A stretch of DNA of 64,000 nt. Origin: a virus. Shown here piece after piece: positions 16,433 through 53,087 of this stretch (positions are counted from its first letter, which is position 1; each line of letters starts with the position of its first letter). The stretch covers positions 105,967 through 169,966 of the IMG/VR virus record IMGVR_UViG_3300047089_000244; one strand, written 5' to 3'. Position numbers and translations under genes: made by a program. Under the pieces are notes generated by a model. It searched no databases, was not told where the DNA came from, and saw only the letters and a list, made by a program, of their open reading frames with translations.

Positions 16433-19400
16433 TCATACCTCCGGTTGTGCGTTGATATACTCTTGCGCTCGCTGGAGTAACGCGCTCTTCTCATTGAGAG
16501 TCGGGTCCGCCACCACATCGTTAGTTAGCTGTCGTAGGATTGTACCAACTTGTGGTCCCGGTTTCAAGCCGAGAGCCAAGAGGTCGTTCCCGTTGACGCT
16601 AATCGCCGACTGGGTGGTAGGCGCTCCGGACTGCCGAGACTGCTCCACGAGTTCGCGCATCGTATCAACAGGCGTCTTATAGGACGTATCGATTCCTTTG
16701 CCCTCGTTATCAGCCGCACGGAGCGTTAAGAGGTCATCTGCCGCCTCTCCCGTCTTGTTCAGGAACTTACGAGCCCCCTTAGCACTAGAGAATTGCGGGA
16801 ACATGTGCTGCGAGATCAAGTTGTGAATGTTGCGAATTTTGGTGACCGGATAGTTAAAGGTCTGGCGTAGGCGAGCCTCAGTCATATCCGCTCCGACTTT
16901 GGCGTGGTCGGCTCCCACTGGGACCCCTTCCAGCATGCCCGCGTAGTAGTGTGTCACGCCCGTCGCTGGGTCTATCCATGCAGAAGCGGGCTTGCCCGTA
17001 TCATGCAAGAGAGCAGCTAGGCGCAGGTCTGGATCTTTGGAAGCGCGCGAGACATTATCGAACACATTTAGGCTATGCTCACCTAGTGAATAATTATGGT
17101 GAGGGTTTTTCTGATCATAGTCGAAGTTATTCGCTAGCTCAGGGAAGAGATGTTTGAGTACGCCTGTTTCCTGAGCCAAGCGGAATGCGCCCGCTGGATT
17201 AGCGCTCGTCAGAAGCTTCTCAAGCTGTTGCTTTAGCGCATCAGGTGACTCCTGATCCAGACGGTGAGCGTACTCTTCCATCTCCTTACGCGTCTGCTCG
17301 TCCGGAACCAGTCCGTGGCGGGAGTGCATCGTGAGGGCTCGGACCAAACGTGTTGGGTCCTCATCGAATGATCCTGGGTGAGTAGTCCGTAAAGTATGGG
17401 ACTCAATGTCTCTAGCTCCTCCGTAGGGATCAAGCAATCGCCCCGACGAGTCAAGATCAACGGCCATAGAATTGGCCGTAAAGTCTCGTCGCTGTAAGTC
17501 TTTCTCGATTGGGAGATGATGATCGACTGTGATTTTTCCTTGTCCACGGGTTCCTCCTGATTCGTATGTGTCGGTGCGAGGAAGTGCGATCTCGACCTCT
17601 TGGCCTTTGGTATGATAGCGGTAGACGCCAAAGCGCTTACCCGTAAGATCCACGCGGCCCGGTAGATGCTCCAAGATGTTATTCACGTCCTCGGGCGGAA
17701 TACCCGATACCATAAGATCAATGTCCTTAGGCTCCTTCTGAAGGAGAGCATCTCGCACGGCTCCACCAACGACATAGACCTTACCGCCAGCTTCTTTAAG
17801 AGCTTGTGAGGCCGTCCAAGCAGCACCATCAGCAGCCGTAATCGAACGGATGTATGTGCCTACGTCCGCCGAAGCAACCTTGTGCTTTTCTCCTGTCTGG
17901 CTTTCCATTTCGAGGCTCGTGATCTCTAGTCCTGGGTGACTATAGTACCACAACTGCATCATGTGATATGTGGAGAACGGGATAGTAGTCGTCGTATTGA
18001 TGACCATCTTACCCTTTGGTTCGTAGTATCCCTCCACGATGCCACCTGGTGTAAACTGCCCCATGATGTCTGGAGTACGCATACCGGGGTGGCCTACCGT
18101 GATATAGTCCTTTTCGATGTCGTAGATGAAGGGGATTGGAGCCTGAAGCAAGTCCTTTCCTTCTTTGCCGCCTGCGGCCTCGAAGTGCCACCCCGCTTCG
18201 TTCCTCCATCCAGGACCAATCGGTTGTAGGTGTTCTGGAAGTTGAGAAGTTCCGTCTCTCTGTGCCTGCACGAACTCCTTAACCCGGTTCAAGTGAGATA
18301 CGTCCTCAGGAAGATCATCCTCTGTGATGTATTGGCCCCCGTGTGCGCCTATTTCTGTAGCGTGCTTGCCACGAGGGTCATAGGAGAACGAAGCATGTGG
18401 CCAATTGTTGGGATCTCTCAAAGAGAGATTCATGTCCGCCCCCATTACATGCTGACTAGAAGGATCGTAAACCATATCGTTTTGATCCTCTGATGTGCCC
18501 ATACCTCCCCAGCAATGGTGCATCATGTCCCCCTCTCTACCAACCTCATTCCAGCTAGGCAAATGTCGAATAGTCCACCCATCAGGAAATTGATGAAGAA
18601 TCTCCGTCTGCTCTGGTCCATGTACCTCTTCGAGTTTTGTCTTAAACCGTTGTTGTTGAGGAACGGTCATTCGTCCGAAGTGCCATTTGTCTGATGAAAC
18701 AAAAGCCCCCATCACAGGAATAGCCGTAGGTGTGACGTTGCGCGGTCGCAGTGGCAATGGCTCGTCTTTGTCTTCGATGGTCGGGAAGTGTCCGTCATCG
18801 ATCGGCGCAGCTTTGGGGTCCTGGTGATCCTGCGTATGCATAACGTAGGCTTTGAAATCTGGTAGCGTCTCGTTGCAATATGGGCAGGTGAGTTGACCTT
18901 GGGGCTCGCCATCAAAAGCTTTGCCCGGTTCTGCTTCTGGATCGCCCTTGTCGTATGTGGTCGGCCACTCCTTGTTCTTGATACGATCGTTCATGTCCGT
19001 GCCACCTGGGTACTCTGCAATGCGATACCCAAAGTCATCTGCCCATTCGATTAGTCCCGGCAGAGCAAACGGATTTGGAGGACGGTTGAAACTAGCTGTA
19101 CGACCTACTATCTCGATCTCATCGTGATTACCCCAGAACGGGCGACTGCTGAGCTTAAGCTTACCCTCGCGCCATCCATACCAGTATGACTTCTTGGCTC
19201 CAAAATCATCATGAATTGGTTGACCACTGCTATCTACCAAGCCACCCCACTTCCATCCAACTTGCTTGCTGTAATCCTTCATCATTTTTACTAGCCCGCG
19301 CAAGCCGATGTTGCTCTCGACACTCCAGAGAGCATCACGTCCGCGCACATTGACATACCCAACGGCCATCGGGCCGTTATGATCGGGAGCGATCTGAGCC

Positions 19401-20140
19401 TCTTCTGCCATCTGTTCGTGGTCGTCTACGGGTGAGACTTTGAACTCGCCGTTGCCGAAGATGAACTTATACTCATGCTCAACAGGTTCCTCCATCGAGA
19501 GATTGAGGTCGTCTATCACCGGGTCGTGGAAATCGCGTTGATTGAATTCCTCTTCTGCCTGCGGGCCTTCGCCAGGATACGCGTCGGAACCCGATCCACC
19601 GGAGTCGGCTTGCTTCAGAATCTTACCCTCTAGAGCGGCATTAGCACGTTCGGCAAATAACTGTGATCGCTGAGTGATGTTTGGCGACTGTTCTAGGTCT
19701 TCCCAGTCACGTTTGTCCTGTCCTGGTTGAGGATCACTCTGAATGCGGAAGTCGCGATAGAGAGGATTGGTTGCATGCGTGTAGACAATTGGGCCTGGCC
19801 TATGGCGCATCTGTTCAGGCTCATACTCATAGGGCTCATCCTCCGCGTCTTGTGGGCGCGGCGTACCTTTGACAGGAGTGAAAGCATACTGGTCGCCTGT
19901 GAGATCCACGACGTAATTCCTATCTGGGCTCACCCAGAAGAAGTGACCTTCCTTCTGGCCAATATGTCCGCCGCCGAGCTTGCTCTGAAGCCACTTAGAT
20001 GTAACGTAACAATGTCCAGCGCTCGGCTGTGGATGACCGCGAGAGTCCTCGGGGCGTGTCTCATCTGACCATGCGTGTTCTGCTGCGCGGCGTAGCTCGT
20101 GCAGTTTCTCTTGTGTGATCGTGTCTGGATCAAATCCCAT
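16433..20140 (-). CDS. cca: Multi-module protein ending in a class II CCA-adding enzyme (tRNA nucleotidyltransferase plus HD)
   Basis: VYVVGGAVRDALL...DIDL, DLQRRDFTANSMA, DPYGG, F.EDPTRLVRA, ALLHDTGKP. About 755 aa of N-terminal modules: YunG-like, C2H2 Zn finger, PcfJ-like. Confidence 0.9.
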   Translation of the reverse strand: MGFDPDTITQEKLHELRRAAEHAWSDETRPEDSRGHPQPSAGHCYVTSKWLQSKLGGGHIGQKEGHFFWVSPDRNYVVDLTGDQYAFTPVKGTPRPQDAEDEPYEYEPEQMRHRPGPIVYTHATNPLYRDFRIQSDPQPGQDKRDWEDLEQSPNITQRSQLFAERANAALEGKILKQADSGGSGSDAYPGEGPQAEEEFNQRDFHDPVIDDLNLSMEEPVEHEYKFIFGNGEFKVSPVDDHEQMAEEAQIAPDHNGPMAVGYVNVRGRDALWSVESNIGLRGLVKMMKDYSKQVGWKWGGLVDSSGQPIHDDFGAKKSYWYGWREGKLKLSSRPFWGNHDEIEIVGRTASFNRPPNPFALPGLIEWADDFGYRIAEYPGGTDMNDRIKNKEWPTTYDKGDPEAEPGKAFDGEPQGQLTCPYCNETLPDFKAYVMHTQDHQDPKAAPIDDGHFPTIEDKDEPLPLRPRNVTPTAIPVMGAFVSSDKWHFGRMTVPQQQRFKTKLEEVHGPEQTEILHQFPDGWTIRHLPSWNEVGREGDMMHHCWGGMGTSEDQNDMVYDPSSQHVMGADMNLSLRDPNNWPHASFSYDPRGKHATEIGAHGGQYITEDDLPEDVSHLNRVKEFVQAQRDGTSQLPEHLQPIGPGWRNEAGWHFEAAGGKEGKDLLQAPIPFIYDIEKDYITVGHPGMRTPDIMGQFTPGGIVEGYYEPKGKMVINTTTTIPFSTYHMMQLWYYSHPGLEITSLEMESQTGEKHKVASADVGTYIRSITAADGAAWTASQALKEAGGKVYVVGGAVRDALLQKEPKDIDLMVSGIPPEDVNNILEHLPGRVDLTGKRFGVYRYHTKGQEVEIALPRTDTYESGGTRGQGKITVDHHLPIEKDLQRRDFTANSMAVDLDSSGRLLDPYGGARDIESHTLRTTHPGSFDEDPTRLVRALTMHSRHGLVPDEQTRKEMEEYAHRLDQESPDALKQQLEKLLTSANPAGAFRLAQETGVLKHLFPELANNFDYDQKNPHHNYSLGEHSLNVFDNVSRASKDPDLRLAALLHDTGKPASAWIDPATGVTHYYAGMLEGVPVGADHAKVGADMTEARLRQTFNYPVTKIRNIHNLISQHMFPQFSSAKGARKFLNKTGEAADDLLTLRAADNEGKGIDTSYKTPVDTMRELVEQSRQSGAPTTQSAISVNGNDLLALGLKPGPQVGTILRQLTNDVVADPTLNEKSALLQRAQEYINAQPEV

Positions 20141-20153
20141 CGCTTATTACTAC

Positions 20154-21809: not shown

Positions 21810-22163
21810 TTATGCTCCCGCTGGTGGATCTTGTAAAGGTTGAGGGTTTGATATACCCGCAGGCTGTGGGATTGTTTGAGAATCGAACACCCGCGCAAGC
21901 TGTGAGCCTGCTTGAGCAACTAACCGGCCCTGCTGAACGATCGCGCCATTGAGCGCATTGATCGCCTTGATTGCTGTATGTGTCAAGAAGAAAACAGCAA
22001 GCCCCGCCCACGCAGTCGTAGCATAGCCGAGGAAGAAACTACCCAACGCCATGCTTGTCAAAGTAATATCCGAAATAATCGCCAGGACCAAACCAAATAC
22101 ATAGTTAAAAGCATAGGCTGGAAATTCCTTGAAGATGGAAAGGATAGTTTGCTGTTCTTTCAT
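21810..22163 (-). CDS. Membrane protein
   Basis: Two TM segments. Confidence 0.6.
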   Translation of the reverse strand: MKEQQTILSIFKEFPAYAFNYVFGLVLAIISDITLTSMALGSFFLGYATTAWAGLAVFFLTHTAIKAINALNGAIVQQGRLVAQAGSQLARVFDSQTIPQPAGISNPQPLQDPPAGA

Positions 22164-22657
22164 GTCGTCGCCCCAATGATCGTAGTAGAAGTGTAATGCT
22201 CATCCAGGATAGCAGAACGCGATTCACGGAACTTAGTCAACATTATATTCTGAGCCTGCAATGGAACAAGCGCTGCACCAGTCCGTTGGGCATTACGATG
22301 CAAGGCTTGAGTGGGGTTATCGAAGAAGATCAAGTGCTTCTCTGCACCGTGGTAATCGGCGAGATCCGAGAGCTTCCAACGCGCCTGATAAGCCAACGAC
22401 GTGGCATCAGCAACAGCATCTTCGCCTTCTTCTAGTATCTCACCCAGATGGCGATGGAACTCAGCGAAAACTTCCCCGTTGCGTTTTGCATCATATGGCT
22501 CTCCCGGCCATTTATACTCACGAATCCGATCGCTACTAACGATTGACCACGGCGAAAAGAATGTTCGCGCCCAGGTAGACTTGCCGCTTCCTGGAATGCC
22601 TGCCAAGATGAACAAGCGAGGATTATGTCGTTCAATAGAGAAATCCATAAATTTCAT
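22160..22657 (-). CDS. P-loop kinase, polynucleotide-kinase-like (AAA_33)
   Basis: GIPGSGKST, SSDRIR, VADAT, RNAQR lid. Confidence 0.85.
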   Translation of the reverse strand: MKFMDFSIERHNPRLFILAGIPGSGKSTWARTFFSPWSIVSSDRIREYKWPGEPYDAKRNGEVFAEFHRHLGEILEEGEDAVADATSLAYQARWKLSDLADYHGAEKHLIFFDNPTQALHRNAQRTGAALVPLQAQNIMLTKFRESRSAILDEHYTSTTIIGATT

Positions 22658-25564: not shown

Positions 25565-26887
25565 TTATCGATACTGCTGGTCACGCCATAATAGCGTGCC
25601 GTTTACGTAAGTTGCGTTCTCGATACGGAAGAACCCATCCGGGTGAACCGTAACTGTCGTGAAGCCCTGCTGCCAATCAGGCAGCGGAGTGAAGTTCGGC
25701 CACTTACGTCCCTTAAGTGGCGTCTGATCCACACGACACATGCATCCTGCCTCTGCTGCCGTCAGGGTTGTGATCGCACCATCGATGTCGTGGGTCGTCT
25801 TGTAGATAATCGACTGACGATGCGTATGACCGACGATCACGCTATAGCCCAAGTGTTCGAGAGTAGCGAGCGCGGAAGCACCAGAACCTTGACGAGCAAT
25901 CCATCCATGGCGGACAGCAAGCTTATTGCTAAGATTGATCTGTGCTAGATCATATGCGCCCTTTGGGTCGATATACTCAATACCTAGCTCGTCCAGGCGA
26001 AGCAAGAATGGTAGCCCTAGAGCGACTACTCCCTCCGCCTCCGGTGAATCAGCTTGCTTCGCGCCGTAGAGGGGCTGCATCGATGGCTTGTCAAGCAGAA
26101 TGTTGCGCAAGCGCTCATCGTGATTGCCCGCAAGCTTCCTCATGCGAGCATTTGGTGCTGCTGTACGAATACCACGCAGTAAGTTGTATCCACTCTGCGT
26201 ACACTCATTAACGGTGGCGGTGTTCTCTGGGTCCAGTCGATGTCGGCTGATCTCAGGATAATCCACTGTGTCGCCAAGCAATGCAATCTCATCCGGGTCG
26301 TTCTCTTCGAGCCAAGCACAAGAGAGATAGTAAAGATTCTCGTCATAGAAGGGGGCCTGTTGGTCGCCCATAACAACAATGAGTTTGGTACCTTTGGTTG
26401 AAGCCCTATGGCGTGGAGGGGCTATCCAACCATCAGACCGCGCGGGGATAAGCTGTAGCTCGGGGTGCTTGCGTCTAAGGTTGAGCTTCGCCTGATGGTA
26501 AGTAACCATACCTTCCTCAGCGCTCGGTCCATCCCACTCGTTGATCGTGGCGCTGTCAATGACCCATTCCTCCGGGTCAAGCCCGCGCTCGCGGAGCATC
26601 GCATCGGGATCATCCATCGGGTTAGTCCTGTGAGCGGAAGAGGTAACCTCGCCCTCGTCCCCCGTGATCTTATAGCCAGCGTTAGCGGCTTTGTTGTTGA
26701 CCTCCAGACCGTGCCGTTTGCGAAACCGGCGAATCGACCCCTCGGTTGATTCAACTCGATACTCTGATGCCCAGAGCGCCTTAACTACAGAAGCATTCGT
26801 CTCTCCTCGACCAATCAGATCTTTGACGAAACCAACGATCGGCTCCTGATCAAGCGGACTTTGTTTCTGTGTCGTCTGTTGGGTCAC
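25565..26887 (-). CDS. Calcineurin-like metallophosphoesterase
   Basis: GDQQ, LGD..D, GNHDER, HG and GHTH motifs. Confidence 0.85.
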   Translation of the reverse strand: MTQQTTQKQSPLDQEPIVGFVKDLIGRGETNASVVKALWASEYRVESTEGSIRRFRKRHGLEVNNKAANAGYKITGDEGEVTSSAHRTNPMDDPDAMLRERGLDPEEWVIDSATINEWDGPSAEEGMVTYHQAKLNLRRKHPELQLIPARSDGWIAPPRHRASTKGTKLIVVMGDQQAPFYDENLYYLSCAWLEENDPDEIALLGDTVDYPEISRHRLDPENTATVNECTQSGYNLLRGIRTAAPNARMRKLAGNHDERLRNILLDKPSMQPLYGAKQADSPEAEGVVALGLPFLLRLDELGIEYIDPKGAYDLAQINLSNKLAVRHGWIARQGSGASALATLEHLGYSVIVGHTHRQSIIYKTTHDIDGAITTLTAAEAGCMCRVDQTPLKGRKWPNFTPLPDWQQGFTTVTVHPDGFFRIENATYVNGTLLWRDQQYR

Positions 26888-41631: not shown

Positions 41632-41634
41632 CTA

Positions 41635-42442: not shown

Positions 42443-42444
42443 AG

Positions 42445-42520
42445 GACTCCTGGCTGTTTGCGACAGCATCTCCCACTTAAAAGGCGGGGCTCTATTGCAG
42501 GCACTTTGAGCTACAGGAGG
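42445..42520 (-). tRNA. Atypical tRNA-Lys (TTT)
   Basis: Loop CTTTTAA; 15-nt D loop; T arm GCTGT-CGCAA-ACAGC lacks TTC. Confidence 0.55.
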
Positions 42521-42522
42521 AG

Positions 42523-42595
42523 TGGGTCGTCCCGGACTCGAACCGGGAATTGTCTCCTTAAGAGGGAGGTGCTCTTACCATTTAGCTAACGACCC
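42523..42595 (-). tRNA. tRNA-Lys (CTT)
   Basis: Full cloverleaf. Confidence 0.9.
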
Positions 42596-42704
42596 AAAAA
42601 CCCCGGCTCTCACGGTCACGCACACGAGCCGCTTATCAGGCGACGCTCGCATACCATCCCGGTTCCACCGGGTCTGGGAACCGCATTTCGGTTCCGAGGC
42701 TTAG

Positions 42705-42777
42705 TCCCCTTGACTGGATTTGAACCAGTGACTTCCTCCTTCGCAGGGAGGCACTCTATCCACTGAGCTACAAGGAG
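42705..42777 (-). tRNA. tRNA-Arg (GCG)
   Basis: Loop CTGCGAA, A20. Confidence 0.9.
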
Positions 42778-42844
42778 AGGTAAAGCGAGTATTTAGCGCC
42801 CTCGCTCACGGCTGTCTCTAGCATGGCCAATGGCCAAAGCCAGA

Positions 42845-43450
42845 TCATCTTGAAAACTTGTTTTCCTGCCAATCATGCAAGAGCGTATACTCATACGAGC
42901 TTGGATCACCACCGATAATCAAATCAAAGAGGACTGGTCTTACGTCCTTCAAGCTTTCGATCAGATGGTCAGCAATATCGCACTCCGCCTTTGTGAGATA
43001 TGGAGCAATAGATTTGTTGCTCTGCCCGTCTCGGAGATGTAAGGCTCGGTGCCAGCCGATACAGGCCGGGATCGTGCAATAGGACCGAGGTGCATAGTTG
43101 ATGTAGTCCGGAAGCTCCAGCATCAACCAACGTGGCACAAAATGGTGCCGTGTGATGGCACCTTCGCAATCCTTCGGCTCGTCGTGGTAGCGACAAACTA
43201 AAGGGCGCTGCGTAGCTAGGGCGCGAGCCTTCTTCTGTTCGATGATCTTGTGCGGTATCAGTCCGCTATTGTGATTGAGTCGCCAGAGTACAGCACGGGT
43301 AGAGAGACGTTCATCAAGAAGATCATCGATCTCCGCGTCCTCCATTTCCGCAAGCACTTCTAGCTGCTCAACAGTAGCTTCTGAGTCATAGGAATCGAAC
43401 CAAAAGACCTCTCCCGTGACAGGATGTGTCCAGTCTCGTGCTCGTGACAT
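42845..43450 (-). CDS. Hypothetical protein with HNH-like motif
   Basis: C...C...TRHHFVP...C..WH..LH. Confidence 0.6.
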   Translation of the reverse strand: MSRARDWTHPVTGEVFWFDSYDSEATVEQLEVLAEMEDAEIDDLLDERLSTRAVLWRLNHNSGLIPHKIIEQKKARALATQRPLVCRYHDEPKDCEGAITRHHFVPRWLMLELPDYINYAPRSYCTIPACIGWHRALHLRDGQSNKSIAPYLTKAECDIADHLIESLKDVRPVLFDLIIGGDPSSYEYTLLHDWQENKFSR

Positions 43451-43487
43451 ACCTATAGTATACAGGGTATGTCAAGGTTCGAAAAAG

Positions 43488-43562
43488 TAGCCCGTGCGGG
43501 ATTCGAACCCGCGTTCACGCGGCCTGAGAAGCCGGTATCCTAAACCACTAGACCAACGGGCC
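43488..43562 (-). tRNA. tRNA-Glu (CTC)
   Basis: Full cloverleaf. Confidence 0.88.
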
Positions 43563-43623
43563 ATAAAGCTATCTGGGCGAGGTACGGATCTATTGAGAAT
43601 CCGCTGTCATTCCAGATAGCAAG

Positions 43624-43696
43624 TACTCCTCCCAGGACTCGAACCTGGAACCATTCGCATATAAGACGAAAGCTCTAACCATTGAGCTAGAGGAGC
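43624..43696 (-). tRNA. tRNA-Ile (TAT)
   Basis: Loop CTTATAT. Confidence 0.88.
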
Positions 43697-43706
43697 ATGC
43701 GGCCCC

Positions 43707-44066
43707 TCACAAGGAGGGACCGTTAATTGCTTCACAGGTGCTAGACAGCAAACGGGGCGTTTGTTCCTTGAACTTTTCGCCTCCGTAAGATGTTTCATTG
43801 TGAGACTGACTCGACCAGGTTATTTCACCACCCCGATACGGTTTTCTCTGATACCATTCTTCCCAGTACCACGGATACCGGCGGGCCGGGATGGGTACAG
43901 AATAGGGCTGAGGTACTGGCCTTGAAGCCAACTCCGCCTTGAGTAAACGAATACAGTCATCGGTTGTCGGGTCCTTGCCGTGACTATGCCACGAGAGCCC
44001 ACAAATAGAGCAAATCGTTGAAACGGCGATTGGCTCAGGTTTTGTTAATTTCTTTCGTGCTGCCAT
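43707..44066 (-). CDS. Hypothetical Zn-binding protein
   Basis: CSIC...H...C. Confidence 0.55.
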   Translation of the reverse strand: MAARKKLTKPEPIAVSTICSICGLSWHSHGKDPTTDDCIRLLKAELASRPVPQPYSVPIPARRYPWYWEEWYQRKPYRGGEITWSSQSHNETSYGGEKFKEQTPRLLSSTCEAINGPSL

Positions 44067-44301
44067 GATTTTCTACAGAGAGGCCCGAAGACATTTCACC
44101 GCGATTGACTCGTTTTTCGGTCATTCCACCCCAAACATGACCTCGTGCAGAATCGAGTGCTTTACCCGCTGACGAAGTGGTCATATTCAATGCTTGACCA
44201 ATCTGGGGAACCGTATTACCATCAAAGTACATCTTGAAGGCTTCGTATTCCGTCGCGTTGAGACAGTACACAGCTTCTATGTCTTGCCTCCCCATTTTCA
44301 T
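44035..44301 (-). CDS. Small HTH (sigma region 4/LuxR-like) protein
   Basis: LNATEYEAF...G.TVPQIGQALNMTTSSAGKAL; AGGAGG RBS. Confidence 0.6.
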   Translation of the reverse strand: MKMGRQDIEAVYCLNATEYEAFKMYFDGNTVPQIGQALNMTTSSAGKALDSARGHVWGGMTEKRVNRGEMSSGLSVENHGSTKEINKT

Positions 44302-44335
44302 CCTCCTTTAGGACGTTTTGGTTTGAGTACTACAG

Positions 44336-44408
44336 GGTGGCCAGAGGGAATCGAACCCTCATCGCCGGGATCACAACCCGGAGTTCTAACCGTTGAACTA
44401 TGGTCACC
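44336..44408 (-). tRNA. tRNA-His (GTG)
   Basis: G-1:C73; full cloverleaf. Confidence 0.92.
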
Positions 44409-44412
44409 ATGA

Positions 44413-44506
44413 TGCGCCAGAGAAGACGCGACCCTCCTGTCCTTCGGCTCGGGGGCCTGTGCTAGCACAACCCACTGTCCGCTGCTCCGCTCTGAGCTAC
44501 TGGCGC
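44413..44506 (-). ncRNA. tRNA-like RNA with elongated anticodon arm
   Basis: GCGCCAG/CTGGCGC-A and GCTC/GAGC D arm; long interrupted stem capped by CTAG; non-canonical T loop. Confidence 0.6.
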
Positions 44507-44507
44507 A

Positions 44508-44581
44508 TATCCCCTCTCGGATTCGAACCGAGACTGTACTGGGCTTAAACCAGTTCCCTCTGCCAGTTGGAGTAAGGGGAC
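44508..44581 (-). tRNA. tRNA-Leu (TAA), short variable loop
   Basis: Loop TTTAAGC. Confidence 0.82.
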
Positions 44582-44588
44582 AAGATAG

Positions 44589-44659
44589 ATGGAGAACAGG
44601 GATTCGAACCCCGATTGAGAGCTTCAAAGGCTCCGGTCTTGCCATTAGACGATTCTCCA
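44589..44659 (-). tRNA. tRNA-Gln (TTG)
   Basis: Full cloverleaf. Confidence 0.9.
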
Positions 44660-44736
44660 AAGTAATCGGCGCGGATATCCACGGGTTAGGGGGCGAGAAC
44701 CTAATCTCTTGCGCTAAACCGCCTTGTACCGATTAG

Positions 44737-44807
44737 CTGGAGAACAGGGACTCGAACCCCAATGACAACGCTCAGAACGTTGCATCTTGCCATTAGATGA
44801 TTCTCCA
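44737..44807 (-). tRNA. tRNA-Gln (CTG)
   Basis: Full cloverleaf. Confidence 0.9.
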
Positions 44808-44814
44808 AAGTACA

Positions 44815-44887
44815 TAGCAGACCCGAGAATCGAACTCGGCTCTCAAGCTTATGGGGCTCGAATGGTCGTCCAGACCACCTGTCTGCA
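44815..44887 (-). tRNA. tRNA-Met (CAT), 1:72 mismatch (initiator-like)
   Basis: Loop CCCATAA, U1.U72, 5-bp D stem. Confidence 0.7.
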
Positions 44888-44889
44888 AA

Positions 44890-44973
44890 TGCCCACCGGG
44901 AGATTCGAACTCCCACACCTTTTCAGATAGCGCCTTTTGAGGACGCCGCGTCTACCATTCCAGCCAGGTGGGC
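44890..44973 (-). tRNA. tRNA-Leu (CAA)
   Basis: Long V arm. Confidence 0.9.
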
Positions 44974-45040
44974 GTATTTATGATAATTGCCTTGTGCACG
45001 CGAGGCAAATTTTTCCGAGGCGGGACTTCCTTCCTCAGAA

Positions 45041-45112
45041 TTGGAATACTAGGACTCGAACCTAGAATACCACCGTATCAGAGTGGCGTGATAACCATTT
45101 CACTATATTCCA
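45041..45112 (-). tRNA. tRNA-Ile (GAT)
   Basis: Full cloverleaf. Confidence 0.88.
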
Positions 45113-45113
45113 G

Positions 45114-45185
45114 CGGATCTGAGAGGAATCGAACCTCTGACGCGCGGTTCTTCAAACCGCCGCTCTACCCCTGAGCTACAGATCC
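45114..45185 (-). tRNA. tRNA-Phe (GAA)
   Basis: Full cloverleaf. Confidence 0.92.
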
Positions 45186-45189
45186 AGGG

Positions 45190-45441
45190 TTACTTCTTGA
45201 CACGAGTAATCTCCTCAAGGTCGTCATAAAGCTTAGGTAGGTTCTCCTCGAACGCACACTCTAAGCATTTGCCAATCTTGGGCAAAGCTCTCTTTGTACA
45301 ACCCGATTCACTACAAACGCCGGGCCTCATGAATTGTGGGATGTTAATATCTTCTTCATTCATTTTGCGTATCCTGAAAAGGTAAAAAAGTAAGATAGCC
45401 CCTCCTAGAAGGAGCCCTTGTTTCATATACCCAGTCATCAC
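45190..45441 (-). CDS. Small membrane-anchored Zn-binding protein
   Basis: TM segment then C4 motif. Confidence 0.5.
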   Translation of the reverse strand: MMTGYMKQGLLLGGAILLFYLFRIRKMNEEDINIPQFMRPGVCSESGCTKRALPKIGKCLECAFEENLPKLYDDLEEITRVKK

Positions 45442-45473
45442 TCGTTATACAACGGGTGATGCAAGAAAATGAG

Positions 45474-45492
45474 CGGAAGGTGAAGGAGTCAA
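45474..45492 (-). pseudogene. tRNA-Ser-like 3' remnant
   Basis: GACTCCTTCACCTTCCG overlapping the HNH stop. Confidence 0.45.
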
Positions 45493-45845
45493 GGATTAGG
45501 AGAACGACTACTATTGCAACGCAAGTGAGAGAAAGCAATGTTCTCCATATCCCAAAACAAATCCGCATCGACACCCAACCAAGATTGCTTATGCTCAATA
45601 CTTAAATCAGATTCATTCTCAATGATCCCTCCGCAATGAAAGCAAACATTCCGATCGGTATCACAAACGAGCATAAAAAGAACCTTCTTGCGCAATCTAT
45701 GCGCTGCGGTGCCCCATGGCATACCCAACTGTTCCGCCTTCTTCAGGTGGCTTTTCGACGGAATCACCGTCCCGTCAGCCTTACGTTCCTTGTAACGACG
45801 TGCATTATATTTACGCACGGCCTCTTTATCCCTGGATACGGGCAT
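45489..45845 (-). CDS. HNH endonuclease
   Basis: CFHCG...LSIEH.....ENIAFSHLRCN. Confidence 0.85.
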   Translation of the reverse strand: MPVSRDKEAVRKYNARRYKERKADGTVIPSKSHLKKAEQLGMPWGTAAHRLRKKVLFMLVCDTDRNVCFHCGGIIENESDLSIEHKQSWLGVDADLFWDMENIAFSHLRCNSSRSPNP

Positions 45846-45864
45846 ACGGAATAGTATATCATAA

Positions 45865-45948
45865 CGGAAGCGTAGAGAGTCGAACTCTAGAGGGCTCATC
45901 ACCCCAGGCGGGTTCAAACCGCTGTCCTCAGCCAACCGGATCACTTCC
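45865..45948 (-). tRNA. tRNA-Ser (TGA)
   Basis: Long V arm, G73. Confidence 0.82.
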
Positions 45949-46006
45949 AAGGGGGTCCGTCCGAGAGCCTTGTTCAGGCCGGGGACGGCTGCCCCGTTGA
46001 GTTGAG

Positions 46007-46077
46007 ACGCGACGGCGAGAATTGAACTCGCGTAGGCGGGTTTGCAATCCGCTGGATGGCCTCTATCCTACGTCGCG
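46007..46077 (-). tRNA. tRNA-Cys (GCA)
   Basis: U73; full cloverleaf. Confidence 0.88.
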
Positions 46078-46083
46078 ATGAAG

Positions 46084-46154
46084 CTGGAAGGCTCGGACTC
46101 GAACCGAGAATACCTGGTTAACGGCCAGGTGTGATGCCATTTCACTACCAACCA
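46084..46154 (-). tRNA. tRNA-Asn (GTT)
   Basis: Loop CCGTTAA; two U.U in acceptor. Confidence 0.8.
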
Positions 46155-46313
46155 ATGTTGTACTGGTACGCCTCGGCTACTTATTGTCGGTTTCGTGTAG
46201 GTACGAGATCCGAGTTGACCGACCTCTCGGTCGAGCTATCGACTTACCACCCGTCACCCGTGTACACATCCAGCTTGGGCCGGGAATGACCTACGACCAG
46301 TACGGTACTACAG

Positions 46314-46399
46314 CGGAAGGGGTGGGATTCGAACCCACGGTGGCTCTCGCCACACTGCCTTAGCGGGGCAGCACAATAATCCATCTCTGCCACCCTTCC
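46314..46399 (-). tRNA. tRNA-Ser (GCT)
   Basis: Long V arm; loop CCGCTAA. Confidence 0.9.
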
Positions 46400-46482
46400 A
46401 GGTGCGCCAGTGTCAGTTGATCCATAGCCTGGCGCATCCACAGTTATGGCCGCTTGCTTTCCCTGCATGCTGGTACTTGCAA

Positions 46483-46557
46483 AGCCCCTAGCGGGATTCG
46501 AACCCACGCAGTGCATCGCTTAGGAAGCGACCGCTCTATCCTCTGAGCTATAAGGGC
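46483..46557 (-). tRNA. tRNA-Arg (CCT)
   Basis: Full cloverleaf. Confidence 0.9.
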
Positions 46558-46733
46558 ATACTATCGGCGAGGGAAACGAGGAGCACCCGTATCTTTAGTA
46601 ATTGACTTAAAGATTTTCGCCACAAATGTTAAAACTATAAATAGCCAAAGAAAATAGAACACTAGGCATGTGATACCTACTATTAGTAGTATCAAAAAAG
46701 CGACATGTTTTCCTTTGGTTGGGGTGCAAAAAG

Positions 46734-47079
46734 TGGACCATCCCGGAATCGAACCGGGGTCTTGTTGTGATTATCGATCTAGCTATCTAGCATCTTGGGA
46801 CAGGCTTGGCCCGTCTCCACCACTCGGTTTATGTCCGAGAACATACTGCTTTCGCGGGGTGCTACCATGAGCACTTTCTGTTCCTAGGTATGTGCTCCTA
46901 CCCGGCGCTGGCGATTAAGCCAGAGCGAGATGTGTCTCGCGTGCCGTGAAGCTTCCATCAAGGAAGCTTGCCGGAATAGCGAGAGTATCATCATTGCCAG
47001 TTATGGCTTGTGCGATTTAGGTGTCGCAACCGATGCACTAGAGGGACTCTCGGGCAACAATCGAATACCCATATGGCCC
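46734..47079 (-). ncRNA. ssrA: tmRNA
   Basis: GGGCCAU/AUGGUCC-A acceptor with G3.U70; T arm CCCGG-UUCGAUU-CCGGG; AUAACU then tag ORF 46998-46915 GNDDTLAIPASFLDGSFTARETHLALA*. Confidence 0.92.
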
Positions 47080-47323
47080 ATGTACCTGCCACGAATCGGG
47101 CAACAATCCCTATCCGCAGGTCCTACAGGGGAGGGAATCCCATCCTGTAGCTGATGCTTGCGGGCGAGGCTAGATAGCACCTCGCCCGCCGACATTACTC
47201 GACTGACTCAGTACTGCTGGATCACCCCCTAAGTTGAAAGGACAAGACACCTAAGGCAGGTACGCCTCCTCGGTTCTAGAAACCGAGCACCCTTACATCT
47301 TGTGGTGACGTTTAAGGTGTCAG

Positions 47324-47395
47324 TGGACGATCAGGGTATCGATCCCCGTACCTCCCGCCTGTCAAACGGGTGCTCTCCCATTGAGCTAATCGTCC
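47324..47395 (-). tRNA. tRNA-Val (GAC)
   Basis: Cloverleaf; T loop ATCGATA. Confidence 0.88.
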
Positions 47396-47534
47396 TAGCC
47401 CCCATCGCGTCTGTTCGCTCCCATGGAGCTACTAAGACCATAGGTACTAGGGCAAACCCCAGGACTACTAATGATATACTAATGATGGACCGACATGATG
47501 GGCCTTACCCCACCCGGCCTAGACATCCACCAAG

Positions 47535-47608
47535 TGCTCGATGAAGGAATCGAACCTTCGACACGTTGGGTGTAAACCAACTGCTCTAAACCACTGAGCT
47601 AATCGAGC
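47535..47608 (-). tRNA. tRNA-Val (TAC)
   Basis: Full cloverleaf. Confidence 0.92.
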
Positions 47609-47773
47609 ATACAAAAACCGCCCTCTCCTTGCTTCAAAAAGCTCAGAGAGTATTGTCATCTCCGCTGCTCACGGAGTTTGCAGGGCTGAGCAGTTCCCCT
47701 GGCGATAGTGAGTTGGCAGTCAGTCCACAACCCTAACAAGGGTGTGCTGTACCTAGCTGTTCACCACAGCTAG

Positions 47774-47845
47774 CGATTCCACGGGGGATCGAACCCCGAC
47801 TTGCTCCTGGACAGGGAGCCGTGATGGCCATTTCACTATGGAACC
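47774..47845 (-). tRNA. tRNA-Asp (GTC)
   Basis: Full cloverleaf, G73. Confidence 0.9.
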
Positions 47846-47937
47846 AAGGGTCTGGCATTGCGGGAGTCTATCCACCGGAAGCCAGACAGTAACGTCTACA
47901 GGTCATGACTCCCGTAGTTTGCGAGACTAATTCGCAG

Positions 47938-48006
47938 CGGGGCGAGAAGGAATTGAACCCTCGCCTGCGGGTTTGGAATCCGCTTGGTCACCATGACCTT
48001 CACCCC
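47938..48006 (-). tRNA. tRNA-Trp (CCA)
   Basis: Loop TTCCAAA; short D arm. Confidence 0.82.
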
Positions 48007-48206
48007 ATGTGTACTAAAGCTTTTCTCCTTTGCAGATCCCGATACAGTGCTGTCCGGAACTTTGTAAACCAGTTCGGATCATCAGGATCGTAAGCTTCGA
48101 GCGCCGCTTGGTTCGCGGCAGCGAAAACGTGCGGTTGTAGCTCCTCCTGCTTGAGAGGACGGTTCAAATATCTCAACGGTAGTAGTTCCGATACCATGCG
48201 AATCAC
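48000..48206 (-). CDS. Small hypothetical protein
   Basis: ORF filling the spacer between tRNAs. Confidence 0.45.
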   Translation of the reverse strand: MIRMVSELLPLRYLNRPLKQEELQPHVFAAANQAALEAYDPDDPNWFTKFRTALYRDLQRRKALVHMG

Positions 48207-48214
48207 TATACCAA

Positions 48215-48286
48215 AGCCAACACTCGGAGTCGAACCGAGTTTCCACGCTTACGAAGCGCGTGCATCGCCGTCAATGCTTTGCTGGC
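48215..48286 (-). tRNA. tRNA-Thr (CGT)
   Basis: Full cloverleaf. Confidence 0.88.
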
Positions 48287-48374
48287 ACAAGAAGCAACCC
48301 GTCCTGAGGACGCCGAAGGGACTCAGCCGCGTCCACGACAGGACTCACGTCCCTTTATTCGTGTGTTACTTCTA

Positions 48375-48446
48375 AGCCTACACTCAGAATCGAACTGAGG
48401 ATGCTCGCATACCAAGCGAGTGTGATACCACTTACACTATGTAGGC
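48375..48446 (-). tRNA. tRNA-Thr (GGT)
   Basis: Full cloverleaf. Confidence 0.9.
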
Positions 48447-48580
48447 ACGAAGGTCCGGTAGCATACCCACTGTCGTCACAGTATAGGGCAGAGGCTTGAC
48501 CGGACCGTACAACAGCCTCTCTATGAGAGGGCGCTCCGTCCGCGATCCCTCTACCGGGGGCCGACCGAGCAATCTTTGAG

Positions 48581-48654
48581 TCAGGATAGGAGGATTTGAA
48601 CCTCCGACCTCTCCCATCCGAGGGGAGCGCTCTACCAAGCTGAGCCATACCCTG
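48581..48654 (-). tRNA. tRNA-Pro (CGG)
   Basis: Full cloverleaf. Confidence 0.92.
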
Positions 48655-48743
48655 ATGCGACCGGCTGCGATCTACTGGTTGTTACACCAGGTCTGCACGG
48701 TCACGCGACCAAGACAGGGCATTGCCGAAGTCCAAATCGCTAG

Positions 48744-48838
48744 TGCGCCTGATGGGATTTGAACCCACATCCGTCGGTGTGAAAAACCGATGCTGGGGAC
48801 AGGTTATGAAGCTGCCTCTACCATTCAGCTACAGACGC
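48744..48838 (-). tRNA. tRNA-Glu (TTC) with hairpin inserted in D loop
   Basis: GCGTCTG/CAGGCGC; TCGGT-TTTTCAC-ACCGA; about 20 extra nt in D region. Confidence 0.65.
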
Positions 48839-48938
48839 TAGTTGTGCTCCCTACCGTTTGAGCCGGAAAACCGATCGCAGAACGGCTCGCCTGGGTTTAC
48901 CCTAATCTCCGGAAGCACAGAGAGATGGCGAAACTACA

Positions 48939-49013
48939 TCGGGATGGCCGGATTCGAACCGACGATCGCCCGCTTCCAAGGCGGCCATGTTAACCAGACT
49001 ACACCACATCCCG
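48939..49013 (-). tRNA. tRNA-Pro (TGG)
   Basis: Full cloverleaf. Confidence 0.9.
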
Positions 49014-49048
49014 TGGTTCCCTAGTCCGTGCTGAGCGGACGAAGGGAG

Positions 49049-49120
49049 TGGAGGACAGGGGAGTCGAACCCCTAACTCTGCCGTGCAAAAGCAGTGTGTT
49101 CCCATTAGCACCAGTCCCCC
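49049..49120 (-). tRNA. tRNA-Ala (TGC)
   Basis: G3.U70. Confidence 0.9.
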
Positions 49121-49219
49121 TGGTGAAATCCGCAGGCTCGGCTCGCGGACTGAGTACAATCTGGGCGCTCTCATCCCATCTCATATGTTTACGGGCTGCC
49201 GATTCAGACCGTCCTACAG

Positions 49220-49291
49220 TGCCTCCGTGGGGAATCGAACCCCAGCTTACCGATTAAAAGTCGGTGGGTCTACCACTAACCATACGGAGAC
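49220..49291 (-). tRNA. tRNA-Lys (TTT)
   Basis: Full cloverleaf. Confidence 0.85.
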
Positions 49292-49408
49292 AAGACCCAG
49301 AACAGAGCGCAGACGCTTCAAAGCGGTAAGGCTCCACATCTGCGATTACTCTGGGGTACTACCCTTCATTCATATGTGGTTTATCAAGTGCCGGAGTCAT
49401 GTCCGGAG

Positions 49409-49491
49409 TGCTGTCCGGGGGAGTCGAACCCCCATGCTCTTACGAGCGGCCGGTTCTAAGCCGACTGCGTATACCATTCCACCAGGACAGC
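49409..49491 (-). tRNA. tRNA-Leu (TAG)
   Basis: Long V arm. Confidence 0.9.
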
Positions 49492-49577
49492 AAATTGTCG
49501 GTCGCGATTCCTGCATCCACCGACGGTATCTCTTGAACGTGATCAAATCGCTCTCACTACCGTACTTCTTACAGGAG

Positions 49578-49661
49578 TGCGCCAGGAGGGACTTGAACCC
49601 TCACGCCCTTGCGGGCACACGGATCTGAACCGTGCTCGTCTACCGATTCCGACACTAACGC
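49578..49661 (-). tRNA. tRNA-Leu (CAG)
   Basis: Long V arm. Confidence 0.9.
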
Positions 49662-49810
49662 AAATGGTTGTCCACGAGGGTTGATTATTCCCCCACTTCG
49701 CATCCACTACTAACACCAAGATCAGGTGTACTCGGGCTCTACTTGGTTACCCGTACCCAATTGCTTTCGCTTCAACTCCTCTTTCTTCCCTATCGGAAGA
49801 AGATGGACAG

Positions 49811-49893
49811 TGCGCTGAGTGGGATTCGAACCCACACGGGCCGAAGCCCACTGCCTCCTCAAGGCAGCACGTCTACCTTTCCATCACCAGCGC
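49811..49893 (-). tRNA. tRNA-Leu (GAG)
   Basis: Long V arm. Confidence 0.9.
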
Positions 49894-50071
49894 GGGATGT
49901 TTATGATAAAGTCCCGCATACGCGAGACCAATTTTTCTGAAAGACAAAGCCCTTTGGTAGGCCGGTTATGTTTGCTCCGCTGCTCAGCCAGACGCAAATT
50001 TAATCCCTGGACAATCTGAGAACTGATGCTCCCCGCGCCCCTTACCTGGAGGTCACGACCAAAAGACTTAG

Positions 50072-50157
50072 TGCGTGCCGAGAGATTCGAACTCCCATTC
50101 CAGAGACTGGAGGGTGGGTTACAGCCACCTGCGACAAACCGTATTCGCGTGACACGC
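50072..50157 (-). tRNA. tRNA-Tyr (GTA)
   Basis: Long V arm. Confidence 0.88.
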
Positions 50158-50380
50158 ATGATACATCAGGTCCTTGATTCCGGGCGCGATCCGACGAGCA
50201 ACTTGATCCCACGACCTTACTCGTTTCGGGACCATGCGGTATGGTTACCGCTGCACTCAAGGGTTTTGCCCTGATGTGGAGGCGTTGGGTATGTCCTACA
50301 GCTATGAGGGACTATGTACGGTGCCTTCTGTGCCGTTCGGCAGGTACTATAGCAGATCCGAAAACCCACTTCCTGCTTAG

Positions 50381-50453
50381 AGCCCCTGGCGGGATTCGAA
50401 CCCGCGACCATCGGGGTAGAAATCCGATGCTCTGTCCTCTGAGCTACAAGGGC
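50381..50453 (-). tRNA. tRNA-Arg (TCT)
   Basis: Full cloverleaf. Confidence 0.92.
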
Positions 50454-50484: not shown

Positions 50485-50513
50485 ACTATACCACACTTCA
50501 AACGGGACTTCAA
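50485..50513 (-). promoter_or_regulatory. Promoter heading the RNA array
   Basis: TTGAAG-N17-TATAGT with extended TG. Confidence 0.7.
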
Positions 50514-50542
50514 ACAAGAAAGGCTCCGATCTTCTCGGAGCC
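50512..50542 (-). terminator. Intrinsic terminator
   Basis: GGCTCCGA-GAAGA-TCGGAGCC-TTTCTTGTTT. Confidence 0.7.
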
Positions 50543-50645
50543 CCTAGAACTCGGCCTGATGTTGGCGTTGTCTAGGGGTTAGCTCACGGTTTTCCCGTGG
50601 GCCTGTTCCTCATTCTGCTTAGGGGATAGATACACCATCTCATGT

Positions 50646-50675
50646 ATTGTAGCAACGGAGGAACCTAAGTTTCAA
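50646..50675 (-). promoter_or_regulatory. SigA-type promoter
   Basis: TTGAAA-N18-TACAAT with extended TG. Confidence 0.6.
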
Positions 50676-51171: not shown

Positions 51172-51918
51172 TCAGGCACCATGTTCCTTTCCCTTGTCGT
51201 CATTCTTGATCGTGGTCTTGAAGAGTGAGTTGCTGTGCTTGTGGTAGGTTACGATCCCCTCCGGGTCCATGAACCCAGGTGCCGCCGATGATCCACGCAC
51301 CTTGAGGGTCGAGAGGACGCCCTTGATGGCGGCCGTATCGAACTCCTCTAGTTCCGCGAGCACTGGTACAACGTGGCAGCAGTCTGGGCGACGAGTCCCG
51401 TTGTCGTTGTACTCGCCGTTCCATCGCGCCGTGTTGAAGAGGCTGAATCGCTTCTCCTCCAATCCGTATTTGCGCTGGATACCTGCGCCCCACCACTCGC
51501 CGAAGTGAACGCCGACTCCAAGGCCCATCGCCAGTTCGCGTGCGTGCTCGCGTACCCATTTGGCGAAGCCGAAGTTGTCCTGTTCCGGAGAGAGGACCTG
51601 CTTGCGCGACTGCGCGTAAACGAAGACTGGCTCCCAGCCATCCAGCTTGTGGCCGTCCGTGTTGATCACGATGCCCGGACCAACGACCTCCTCATCGCCG
51701 TAGTTGTAGGGAACCATGTCGCTCACCACGACAGCGGCGTTGGTACCATCGATCTTCTCGGTGATGACGACCGGGCGGAAGAGCCTCCCGATCTTCGGGA
51801 AGGGAGTGAAGTCTGCCTGTGGAATGAATGCGTCCTCCGGTATACGTACCTGCGCGTTGAGATCCATGTCCTCAAGACCCATCCCACTCAACCTCCATGT
51901 ATCCGTTCTCATTGCCAC
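51172..51918 (-). CDS. RNA ligase (Rnl2-like adenylyltransferase domain)
   Basis: Motif I EKIDGTN, QSR, GEWWG, F, EGIV, FK; true start may be downstream. Confidence 0.85.
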   Translation of the reverse strand: MAMRTDTWRLSGMGLEDMDLNAQVRIPEDAFIPQADFTPFPKIGRLFRPVVITEKIDGTNAAVVVSDMVPYNYGDEEVVGPGIVINTDGHKLDGWEPVFVYAQSRKQVLSPEQDNFGFAKWVREHARELAMGLGVGVHFGEWWGAGIQRKYGLEEKRFSLFNTARWNGEYNDNGTRRPDCCHVVPVLAELEEFDTAAIKGVLSTLKVRGSSAAPGFMDPEGIVTYHKHSNSLFKTTIKNDDKGKEHGA

Positions 51919-52372: not shown

Positions 52373-52373
52373 C

Positions 52374-53087
52374 CTACCTCACCTCGTCAATGAAACCATA
52401 GCCGAGCGCTGTATCAGCGGTCATCCACCAATCCTTACGACTCCAACTACGTTTGATGAATCCCTTGGTGGTCTTTTTGTTGATCAATTCTGCTCGGGAG
52501 GCGAAGAGATTCAGGATACGCTCGTGCATGATCTCCACAAATTTGACCTGATCCTCGATCTTACCGAAGGAACCGACTGCTCCGAATTGCGCCTCGTGGA
52601 TAAGAAGGAAAGCGTTCTCACCCATAATACGCTTGTTGCCTGTCTGAAGAAGGACGCCAGCCATTGATGCCGCAGCACCCAAAGCCCTCGTGTTGATCGT
52701 GTGTCCTTTGGCGCGAAGATCGAAGATGAAATCGACTAGCGCAAAGCCATCGATAACCGCCCCCCCAGGAGAGTTAATCTGAAGCTCGATCTCGCAGTTG
52801 TCCTTCTGCCTAGTCCAAAGTACCAACTGATTGATGCACGCCTTGACTGAATCTTCATCAACCGGCCTGTCGAAAACGTACACGGAGTTGTGCTGGTTCT
52901 TTGCAAGCTCATCTAACTCAGCACGTTTCTTTGCGGCCAGCAAGATCTCTGCTTGCTTTGCTTCGGCAGTTACTTTGCGAGCCTCGGCTCTGTGAAGCTG
53001 AGCTTCCTCGTGAGCGGCCTCGGCCTCGGCCGTAAACTTGTTACGCTCCTCGATAGTTGTCTCCTTATCTTCTTTTCTGGCGGGCAT
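52374..53087 (-). CDS. clpP: ClpP-family serine protease
   Basis: INSPGG, AASMA (Ser), LIH (His), DWWMTA..A...GFID. Confidence 0.9.
   Translation of the reverse strand: MPARKEDKETTIEERNKFTAEAEAAHEEAQLHRAEARKVTAEAKQAEILLAAKKRAELDELAKNQHNSVYVFDRPVDEDSVKACINQLVLWTRQKDNCEIELQINSPGGAVIDGFALVDFIFDLRAKGHTINTRALGAAASMAGVLLQTGNKRIMGENAFLLIHEAQFGAVGSFGKIEDQVKFVEIMHERILNLFASRAELINKKTTKGFIKRSWSRKDWWMTADTALGYGFIDEVR

Follow-up and report, generated by a model that had tools for sequence, protein, structure and literature searches.

A phage tRNA array that appears to be inherited together with RNase P RNA, tmRNA and a CCA-adding enzyme, amid a loose fringe of repair and rescue genes

Why should a phage with a large tRNA array also encode RNase P RNA, which is usually regarded as a cellular housekeeping ribozyme? 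The question is raised by the stretch of DNA analysed here, the final 64,000 nucleotides (nt; positions 105,967 to 169,966, hereafter the window) of the viral record IMGVR_UViG_3300047089_000244 in the IMG/VR database. An earlier note on the window had listed about 39 tRNAs for all 20 amino acids, RNase P RNA, a CCA-adding enzyme, a Pnk-like kinase, an RNA ligase, transfer-messenger RNA (tmRNA), the protease ClpP and the peptidyl-tRNA hydrolase Pth2, and had read them as one system of tRNA maturation, repair and ribosome rescue, lying between positions 16433 and 53087 and serving as a translation back-up. All of these components are indeed present in the window (Table 1), but they do not form one locus, since the kinase and CCA genes lie 17–23 kb from the array, past the terminase and portal genes. 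Their distribution among relatives suggests instead a coupled core, made of the array, RNase P RNA, tmRNA and the CCA enzyme, surrounded by a loose fringe of ClpP, ligase, Pth2 and kinase.

The comparison behind this division covers six near-complete genomes, namely the source genome (G000), G002, the complete genome G005, a prophage (G009), G010 and G011, together with G001, which entered through its ClpP and whose membership in the clade is provisional. The near-complete genomes with an array (G000, G002, G005 and G009) all carry RNase P RNA, tmRNA and the CCA enzyme, and G011, which has no tRNA, has none of the three. RNase P RNA was found in all ten large-array relatives whose slot was covered, and is absent, even when searched with a sequence model of the clade, from G001, G010 and G011, with two, three and no tRNAs, respectively. 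The other genes follow a different pattern. ClpP is present in G000, G002 and the array-less G001, and missing from G005 and G009, both of which have a tmRNA; the RNA ligase shows the same distribution. G002 and G009 lack Pth2, G009 also the kinase, while ClpP, ligase and kinase are all encountered also without an array. It is from this pattern of presence and absence that a coupled core and a loose fringe are proposed, meaning that the claim of one system holds for the four core members, which co-occur, and fails for the other four, which do not track the array or the tmRNA.

The source genome is a single contig of 169,966 bp with ends overlapping by ~120 bp, a CheckV completeness of 100% and an even GC content near 52% along its length. 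It is a complete, circular 170-kb virus, against the class 'linear' given to the record in IMG/VR. Portal, terminase, major capsid and head-maturation proteins are encoded (PHROG), and the major capsid protein is 52–55% identical to those of the cluster C mycobacteriophages, Rhodococcus phage Finch and Gordonia phage Stormageddon. With this homologous capsid protein and a genome size within 135–170 kb, the virus is, as judged from its sequence, a Bxz1-like actinobacterial myovirus and a relative of the Ceeclamvirinae. The relative G009 is a 152.6-kb provirus in the isolate genome of Candidatus Solirubrobacter pratensis URHD0082, and since its terminase is 45% identical to that of the source phage, the host of the latter is probably a member of the Solirubrobacterales.

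The RNase P RNA gives a full-length hit to RF00010 with 56.9 bits (E 8e-17), in which the catalytic domain aligns but the specificity domain (S-domain) does not. As this does not reach the gathering score of 100 bits, a Rfam search run at that score misses it; both the RNase P RNA and the tmRNA were detected with a Rfam E-value threshold. A clade sequence model built from six relatives, with the window copy left out, recovers the window RNA at 127 bits (E 7e-38). The RNase P RNAs of ten distinct relatives all lie between tRNA-Gly(GCC) and tRNA-Thr(UGU), usually abutting a tRNA, and the window copy ends 6 nt ahead of tRNA-Thr(UGU). Across the ten aligned sequences, pairing is complete (100%) in P2 and P4 (80/80 cells in P4) and reaches 97.5% in P3, and double changes are found at 4/8 pairs of P4 and at 30/54 pairs over all helices; the covariation controls, which are not probabilities, gave 0/500 among shuffles and 32–44% pairing when the sequences were slid. 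Pairing counts for P11 and P18 were misaligned in alignment A1 and have been set aside. Without selection for the fold, two-sided changes in the P4 pseudoknot would be difficult to account for, which suggests that the RNA is under structural selection. P1, P2, P3, P5, P15, J5/15, the P4 pseudoknot (CR-I/CR-V) with its bulged U and a P18-like hairpin, all features of type A, are present, L15 GGU is kept in 11/11 copies and CR-IV in 10/11. The RNase P RNA of the earlier note is thus real, with a covarying catalytic core, though below the Rfam cut-off.

The S-domain is much reduced, with 102 nt in the window and 86–144 nt over the 11 copies, as compared with 167 nt in the host copy. CR-II is absent from 11/11 clade copies in a search allowing two mismatches, and P6, P13 and P14 were not seen in the window RNA by inspection; the interleaved CR-II/CR-III T-loops of a canonical S-domain are lacking, and most copies keep a T-loop-like J12/11 remnant. 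Large inserts are tolerated in the clade RNAs. In two clade copies (L047 and L067) P12 and both T-loop segments are apparently deleted and a short capped helix is left, an extreme S-domain reduction. It has been reported that an RNase P catalytic domain without S-domain still cleaves, at lower efficiency (PMC5839562).

The Ca. S. pratensis genome contains a canonical rnpB (247 bits) plus the prophage copy, which was found only by the clade model. Since the RF00010 search of this genome returned the cellular gene alone, standard annotation overlooks the clade version. Viral RNase P RNA is also not confined to this clade: further IMG/VR contigs (L004/L011, L005, L020, L022, L023 and L031) carry one inside a tRNA array, five of them canonical or near-canonical and L031 reduced much like the present clade. 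The canonical ones score 181–280 bits, and phage RNase P RNA is therefore recurrent. A BLASTn search with the window RNase P RNA gave no real match among cultured phages.

The tmRNA, the second RNA of the core, has a tRNA-like domain with the G3–U70 pair, a resume signal and a 27-residue tag with the small hydrophobic end -LALA, and does not encode its CCA. It stays below the RF00023 gathering score of 47 bits, whereas two clade orthologues pass with 49–51 bits; the pair and the tag nevertheless bear out the earlier identification. Related tags are found in G003 and in the prophage, and the host tag ends in -ALAL. Relaxed ARAGORN scans for tmRNA gave many false permuted calls, which were disregarded.

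As for the array, ARAGORN reported 36 tRNAs on the minus strand, plus a spurious plus-strand tRNA-Val(CAC) at 51695, which falls within the ligase gene and is not supported by Rfam. Together with tRNA-Ser(UGA), also found in six relatives, and tRNA-Glu(UUC), the count becomes 38 and not about 39; the coverage of all 20 amino acids stands. CCA is encoded in 0/38 tRNAs of the window (checked by eye) and in 1/228 tRNAs of six relatives (by a T-loop offset heuristic), so that a CCA enzyme is required. Each of the 14 A-ending sense codons is matched by a cognate phage tRNA, and several G- or C-ending codons are without one. The array carries Arg(GCG) and Arg(UCG), not Arg(ACG), plus Ile(UAU) (42107–42777 and 43623–43696), a set that would bypass inosine and lysidine formation; these anticodons are rare in bacteria, yet occur in most clade members.

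The CCA-adding enzyme could likewise be verified by Pfam, PHROG and PDB matches and by its motifs, although it makes up only the final ~480 residues (~757–1235; window ~16436–17872) of a 1235-residue open reading frame. Preceding it are, in order, a YunG-like module, an unknown one, a C2H2-like module, a variable PcfJ-like slot and a conserved domain of ~100 residues. Both here and in most homologues, motifs A, B and D, the flexible loop with its basic/acidic pair and the HD domain have been preserved intact, and the presence of the loop suggests that the enzyme is not of the CC-only type; judged by eye, it also lacks a poly(A) polymerase signature. Its best NCBIfam hit is the actinobacterial type TIGR02692 (198 bits, below the equivalog cut-off of 439), and it is 25–35% identical to the two enzymes of the host. 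The latter, in Ca. S. pratensis (L080 and L082), have 412 and 478 residues, the longer one without flexible loop, and are presumably A-adding (412 residues, A-type loop) and CC-adding (478 residues, loop missing).

The fusion is characteristic of the whole family: nearly all of the 88 homologues of the N-terminal part are fused to a CCA enzyme, with a swappable middle slot, and the frames in G010 (L078) and in the prophage (L079) reach 2163 and 1560 residues, respectively. A basic-hydrophobic-Ala motif stands directly before the CCA enzyme in 80/84 homologues, as against ~8% expected, and in the AlphaFold model, which shows separate domains joined by low-confidence linkers, it falls at the predicted domain ends 176, 373 and 754. 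The head protease of the source genome carries eight such motifs, and across head proteins the motif is only weakly enriched, by ~2-fold (5.1 versus 2.6 per 1000 residues, in hand-picked sets). A cleavage-like motif at domain borders, in a genome with a head-maturation protease (PHROG), is what a polyprotein would display; the motif may be where a protease cuts virion cargo, and it is plausible that the fusion is cargo processed in this way. If true, a tRNA-maturing enzyme would be delivered alongside the DNA. The N-terminal 770 residues have no match in cultured phages; a Foldseek search of PDB and BFVD with the model of the 757 N-terminal residues yielded no usable fold, only weak PcfJ-like matches, and an ESM Atlas search with residues 655–757 found nothing. 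One module is shared with a 1390-residue modular protein (G000:102259–106431, minus strand) that contains Acb1-like 2H and cREC domains. Modules of these two proteins also occur in proteins of 545 and 1832 residues.

Table 1. Positions in the window of the features discussed in the text
Feature	Position	Strand	Evidence and remarks
1235-aa (amino acid) modular protein with C-terminal class II CCA-adding enzyme and HD domain	16433..20140	-	Pfam
Pnk-like 5'-kinase, 165 aa, kinase domain only	22160..22657	-	AAA_33; PHROG polynucleotide kinase
Metallophosphoesterase-like protein, candidate 3'-end healer	25565..26887	-	Metal-ligand motifs by inspection
Portal, three unassigned genes, terminase	26850..34649	-	PHROG; between CCA/kinase genes and tRNA array; context, outside the tRNA machinery
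tRNA array, 38 tRNAs, 20 amino acids, without encoded CCA	39197..50453	- (all)	
Pth2 peptidyl-tRNA hydrolase	39490..39942	-	PF01981 E 1e-17, above cut-off; PDB alignments; catalytic Lys/Asp/Thr
RNase P RNA	40236..40579	-	Type-A-like catalytic domain, reduced specificity domain, extra helix after P18
tRNA-like body, acceptor stem and T-arm, no clear anticodon	40580..40679	-	RF00005 26.8 bits; abuts RNase P RNA 5' end
tRNA-Ser(UGA)	45865..45948	-	Relaxed ARAGORN only; default scans miss it
tmRNA	46733..47079	-	ARAGORN; RF00023 34.8 bits, E 7.6e-11
tRNA-Glu(UUC), 95 nt, D-loop insert (hairpin in relatives)	48744..48838	-	Rfam 60.9 bits
Structured non-coding RNA candidate, ~190 nt, conserved	50158..50340	-	No Rfam match
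Two extended -10 promoter-like sites and terminator-like hairpin	50485..50675	-	Array head; consensus matches only
ATP-grasp RNA ligase (PF09414)	51172..51918	-	Pfam, PHROG; motifs I, III, IIIa, IV, V present
ClpP-like protease	52374..53087	-	PF00574 above cut-off; Ser-His-Asp triad; extra ~65-aa N-terminal segment

How, then, could the core work? Beyond the sequence features, their conservation and their distribution, we infer the following course. Long minus-strand transcripts would start at the promoter-like sites ahead of the array, host 3' nucleases would trim the precursors, and the phage CCA enzyme would add or repair the CCA. Processing of the neighbouring tRNAs would release the RNase P RNA from the shared transcript; it could then bind host RnpA, base-pair with the new CCA through its L15 GGU, and cut the 5' leaders. 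Such an order, 3' trimming and CCA before the 5' cut, has been reported for T4, whose precursors without CCA are cut better once CCA is present (PMC11143913). Synthetases, SmpB and ribosomes would be the host's throughout. Neither RnpA nor SmpB is encoded anywhere in the source genome, which extends to the whole virus what had been noticed for the window, and no aminoacyl-tRNA synthetase turned up with three major Pfam families and scans of ~50 open reading frames; the phage therefore depends on its host, and the idea of an autonomous translation back-up has to be given up. RnpA is encoded by the sampled host Ca. S. pratensis. The array, RNase P RNA, tmRNA and CCA enzyme would be inherited as a set that sustains tRNAs if host tRNAs or their processing are limiting or attacked, with kinase, ligase and Pth2 as ordinary, optional repair add-ons.

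The account that we favour, and consider moderately probable, is thus that the phage makes a complete tRNA set and brings along parts to finish both tRNA ends, the core keeping the tRNA supply up when it is limiting or under attack. Several observations weigh against it. G010 keeps the CCA fusion with only three tRNAs and neither RNase P RNA nor tmRNA. The mycobacteriophage Nappy, whose 27-tRNA array comes with tmRNA and Pth and encodes CCA in 1/27 tRNAs, does without RNase P RNA; the phage ribozyme is thus an addition and not a requirement. The RNase P structure was drawn on the window copy, and the relatives share ancestry with it; moreover, an S-domain without CR-II may make the activity weak or altered. 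A stronger version, in which the phage has its own catalysts for both tRNA ends, with a slimmed RNase P active on the host protein and a CCA/HD enzyme packaged in the capsid, cut by the head protease and injected early to mature or repair tRNA 3' ends, seems doubtful, on the unlikely side. It is hardly credible, on the other hand, that the locus is an assembly chimera or captured host DNA. The record is of metagenomic origin and labelled 'linear', but the end overlap, the even GC and the CheckV completeness all speak for an intact virus, Ca. S. pratensis holds its own canonical rnpB elsewhere, and the tRNA order and the RNase P RNA slot recur in ten other assemblies, one of them the prophage of the isolate genome. 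Such synteny of phage genes in independent assemblies rules out a chimera, of which the earlier note had warned, as well as host contamination.

The remaining alternatives concern function. The same mechanism could have been selected for capacity and codon supply, not for defence, RNase P RNA and CCA enzyme raising the throughput for ~40 CCA-less precursors: with 52% GC as against ~70% in its host, the phage would need tRNAs for A/U-ending codons, the host loci have indeed 69–76% GC, the codon coverage of the array described above fits, and split CC-type and A-type enzymes of the host could limit de novo CCA addition. This remains a tentative possibility, since the 62%-GC prophage has the same kind of array and the sister modular protein carries the Acb1-like and cREC counter-defence domains, and phage tRNAs are reported to rescue infection when tRNA-cutting defences are at work (PMC10264068, PMC11464382, PMC11555353). 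That the RNase P RNA is a decoy or a ribozyme of altered specificity, which binds RnpA or the 3' ends of tRNAs, or cleaves short substrates other than tRNA, and so diverts host processing, appears decidedly unlikely. The missing CR-II, the short S-domains and the tolerated inserts would agree with it, as would the canonical S-domain kept in other viral contigs; the catalytic nucleotides, the P4 bulge and L15 GGU, however, have all been preserved, although a decoy for protein alone could do without them, and the RNA sits among its presumed substrates. Still less probability can be given to the reading of all eight components as one integrated maturation, repair and rescue system, in which the phage ClpP degrades tmRNA-tagged proteins. 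All eight occur intact on one strand, the ligase and ClpP flank the array with Pth2 inside it, and the tag has a hydrophobic -LA end, as in host tags. Against this stand the distributions of ClpP, ligase and Pth2, and the finding of no ClpX/ClpC-type partner among the open reading frames scanned. The ClpP gene itself is genuine, but it does not co-occur with tmRNA and nothing ties it to the tmRNA tags, so that a dedicated ClpP–tmRNA link is probably absent.

Among the fringe genes, the identification of Pth2 and of the RNA ligase proved sound in the light of their family matches and conserved residues. The Pnk-like kinase was verified as a kinase (PDB matches to the kinase domain 4gp7, E 1.7e-9, and to T4 Pnk), but the 3'-phosphatase domain that T4-type Pnk combines with the 5'-kinase in one protein is missing. 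Healing of 3' ends could be performed by the HD domain or by the metallophosphoesterase-like protein, which the earlier note did not list and for which there was no Pfam or NCBIfam hit. The best cultured-phage hits of the ligase are mostly in 41–56-kb actinophages, and those of ClpP in ~75-kb mycobacteriophages.

The array contains further features of its own. tRNA-Glu(UUC) is its sole GAA reader and has a non-Glu-like body; the D-loop-insert design is common to G002, G003 (two copies), G005 and G007. This five-armed tRNA was not confirmed as a host feature, the Ca. S. pratensis copy being canonical and those of the prophage and G015 ordinary too. The slot of the tRNA-like body next to the RNase P RNA is mostly occupied by tRNA-Gly(GCC) in relatives. 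Degenerate or rearranged tRNA-like bodies are seen at 40580–40934, 42402–42522 and 44408–44507 (minus strand), and the block 40585–40934, downstream of an HNH gene, has no match among the relatives compared. Two paralogous HNH-like genes, 37% identical, lie within the array (40935–41300 and 41650–42083, minus strand). Promoter-like sites number 14 versus 10.4 ± 3.4 in shuffles, and hence are not above shuffles. The structured RNA candidate near the array head recurs in four other viral contigs, among them G003 (95% identity over 133 nt), G002 and the prophage; an extended -10 promoter-like site of its own accompanies it, and some of its changes look compensatory. A hammerhead reading of it was rejected, as the register of stem II is wrong and Rfam gave no hit. 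Seven array spacers are conserved in relatives with 70–93% identity (39267–39412, 41403–41649, 46155–46313, 47080–47323, 48447–48580, 49292–49408 and 50454–50695), and it is possible that they are small RNAs or promoters. Elsewhere in the genome, a small antisense gene (G000:16212–16580, plus strand) resembles a portal protein fragment (39% over 92 residues).

tRNAs, tmRNA, Pth2, ligase, kinase and ClpP are already known in large phages; what is added here is the covariation within the clade, the division into core and fringe by distribution, and an isolate whose prophage could serve for tests. The earlier note knew of few, if any, characterised phage RNase P RNAs, and no paper on one was found in the literature searched, which covered few subscription papers. 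With specificity domains shortened to varying degrees, the clade forms a natural deletion series that bears on the minimal ribozyme, and since the prophage resides in isolate URHD0082, expression and function may be testable, unlike in most metagenomic cases.

Among known systems, the closest by capsid are the cluster C mycobacteriophages (Ceeclamvirinae, such as Nappy), Finch and Stormageddon. Nappy resembles the source phage in combining tmRNA, Pth and an HNH gene with a tRNA array whose members are mostly CCA-less, whereas RNase P RNA was not found in the three cultured genomes Nappy, Finch and Stormageddon. The RNA repair and ribosome-rescue kits of jumbo phages also comprise tRNAs, ATP-grasp ligases, polynucleotide kinases, a CCA-adding enzyme and Pth2, in a survey that mentions neither RNase P nor tmRNA (Iyer et al. 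2021, PMC7824862). In comparison with these kits and with T4 Pnk/Rnl, the kinase of the source phage is without phosphatase and its CCA enzyme stands behind ~755 residues of other modules. With the class II CCA-adding enzymes with HD domain (TIGR02692; E. coli Cca) this enzyme shares motif A, the flexible loop, motif B, motif D and HD, but it scores below the cut-off and is the last module of a long protein. Nearest among published cases are the extra RNase P RNA copies of Mycobacterium austroafricanum and M. sp. YC-RL4, which likewise have an altered specificity domain, conserved key residues and a suspected horizontal acquisition; in the accessible part of that report no phage or tRNA array is assigned to them, and the likeness is one of description only (PMC9569102). 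Finally, the phage RNA has in common with bacterial type A RNase P RNA (RF00010; E. coli M1 RNA, rnpB) P1–P5, the bulged U of P4, J5/15, P15 with L15 GGU, the P18-like hairpin and CR-I, CR-IV and CR-V, and differs from it in having no cognate RnpA, in being phage-borne and placed among tRNAs, and in its 102-nt S-domain without CR-II and its extra helix after P18.

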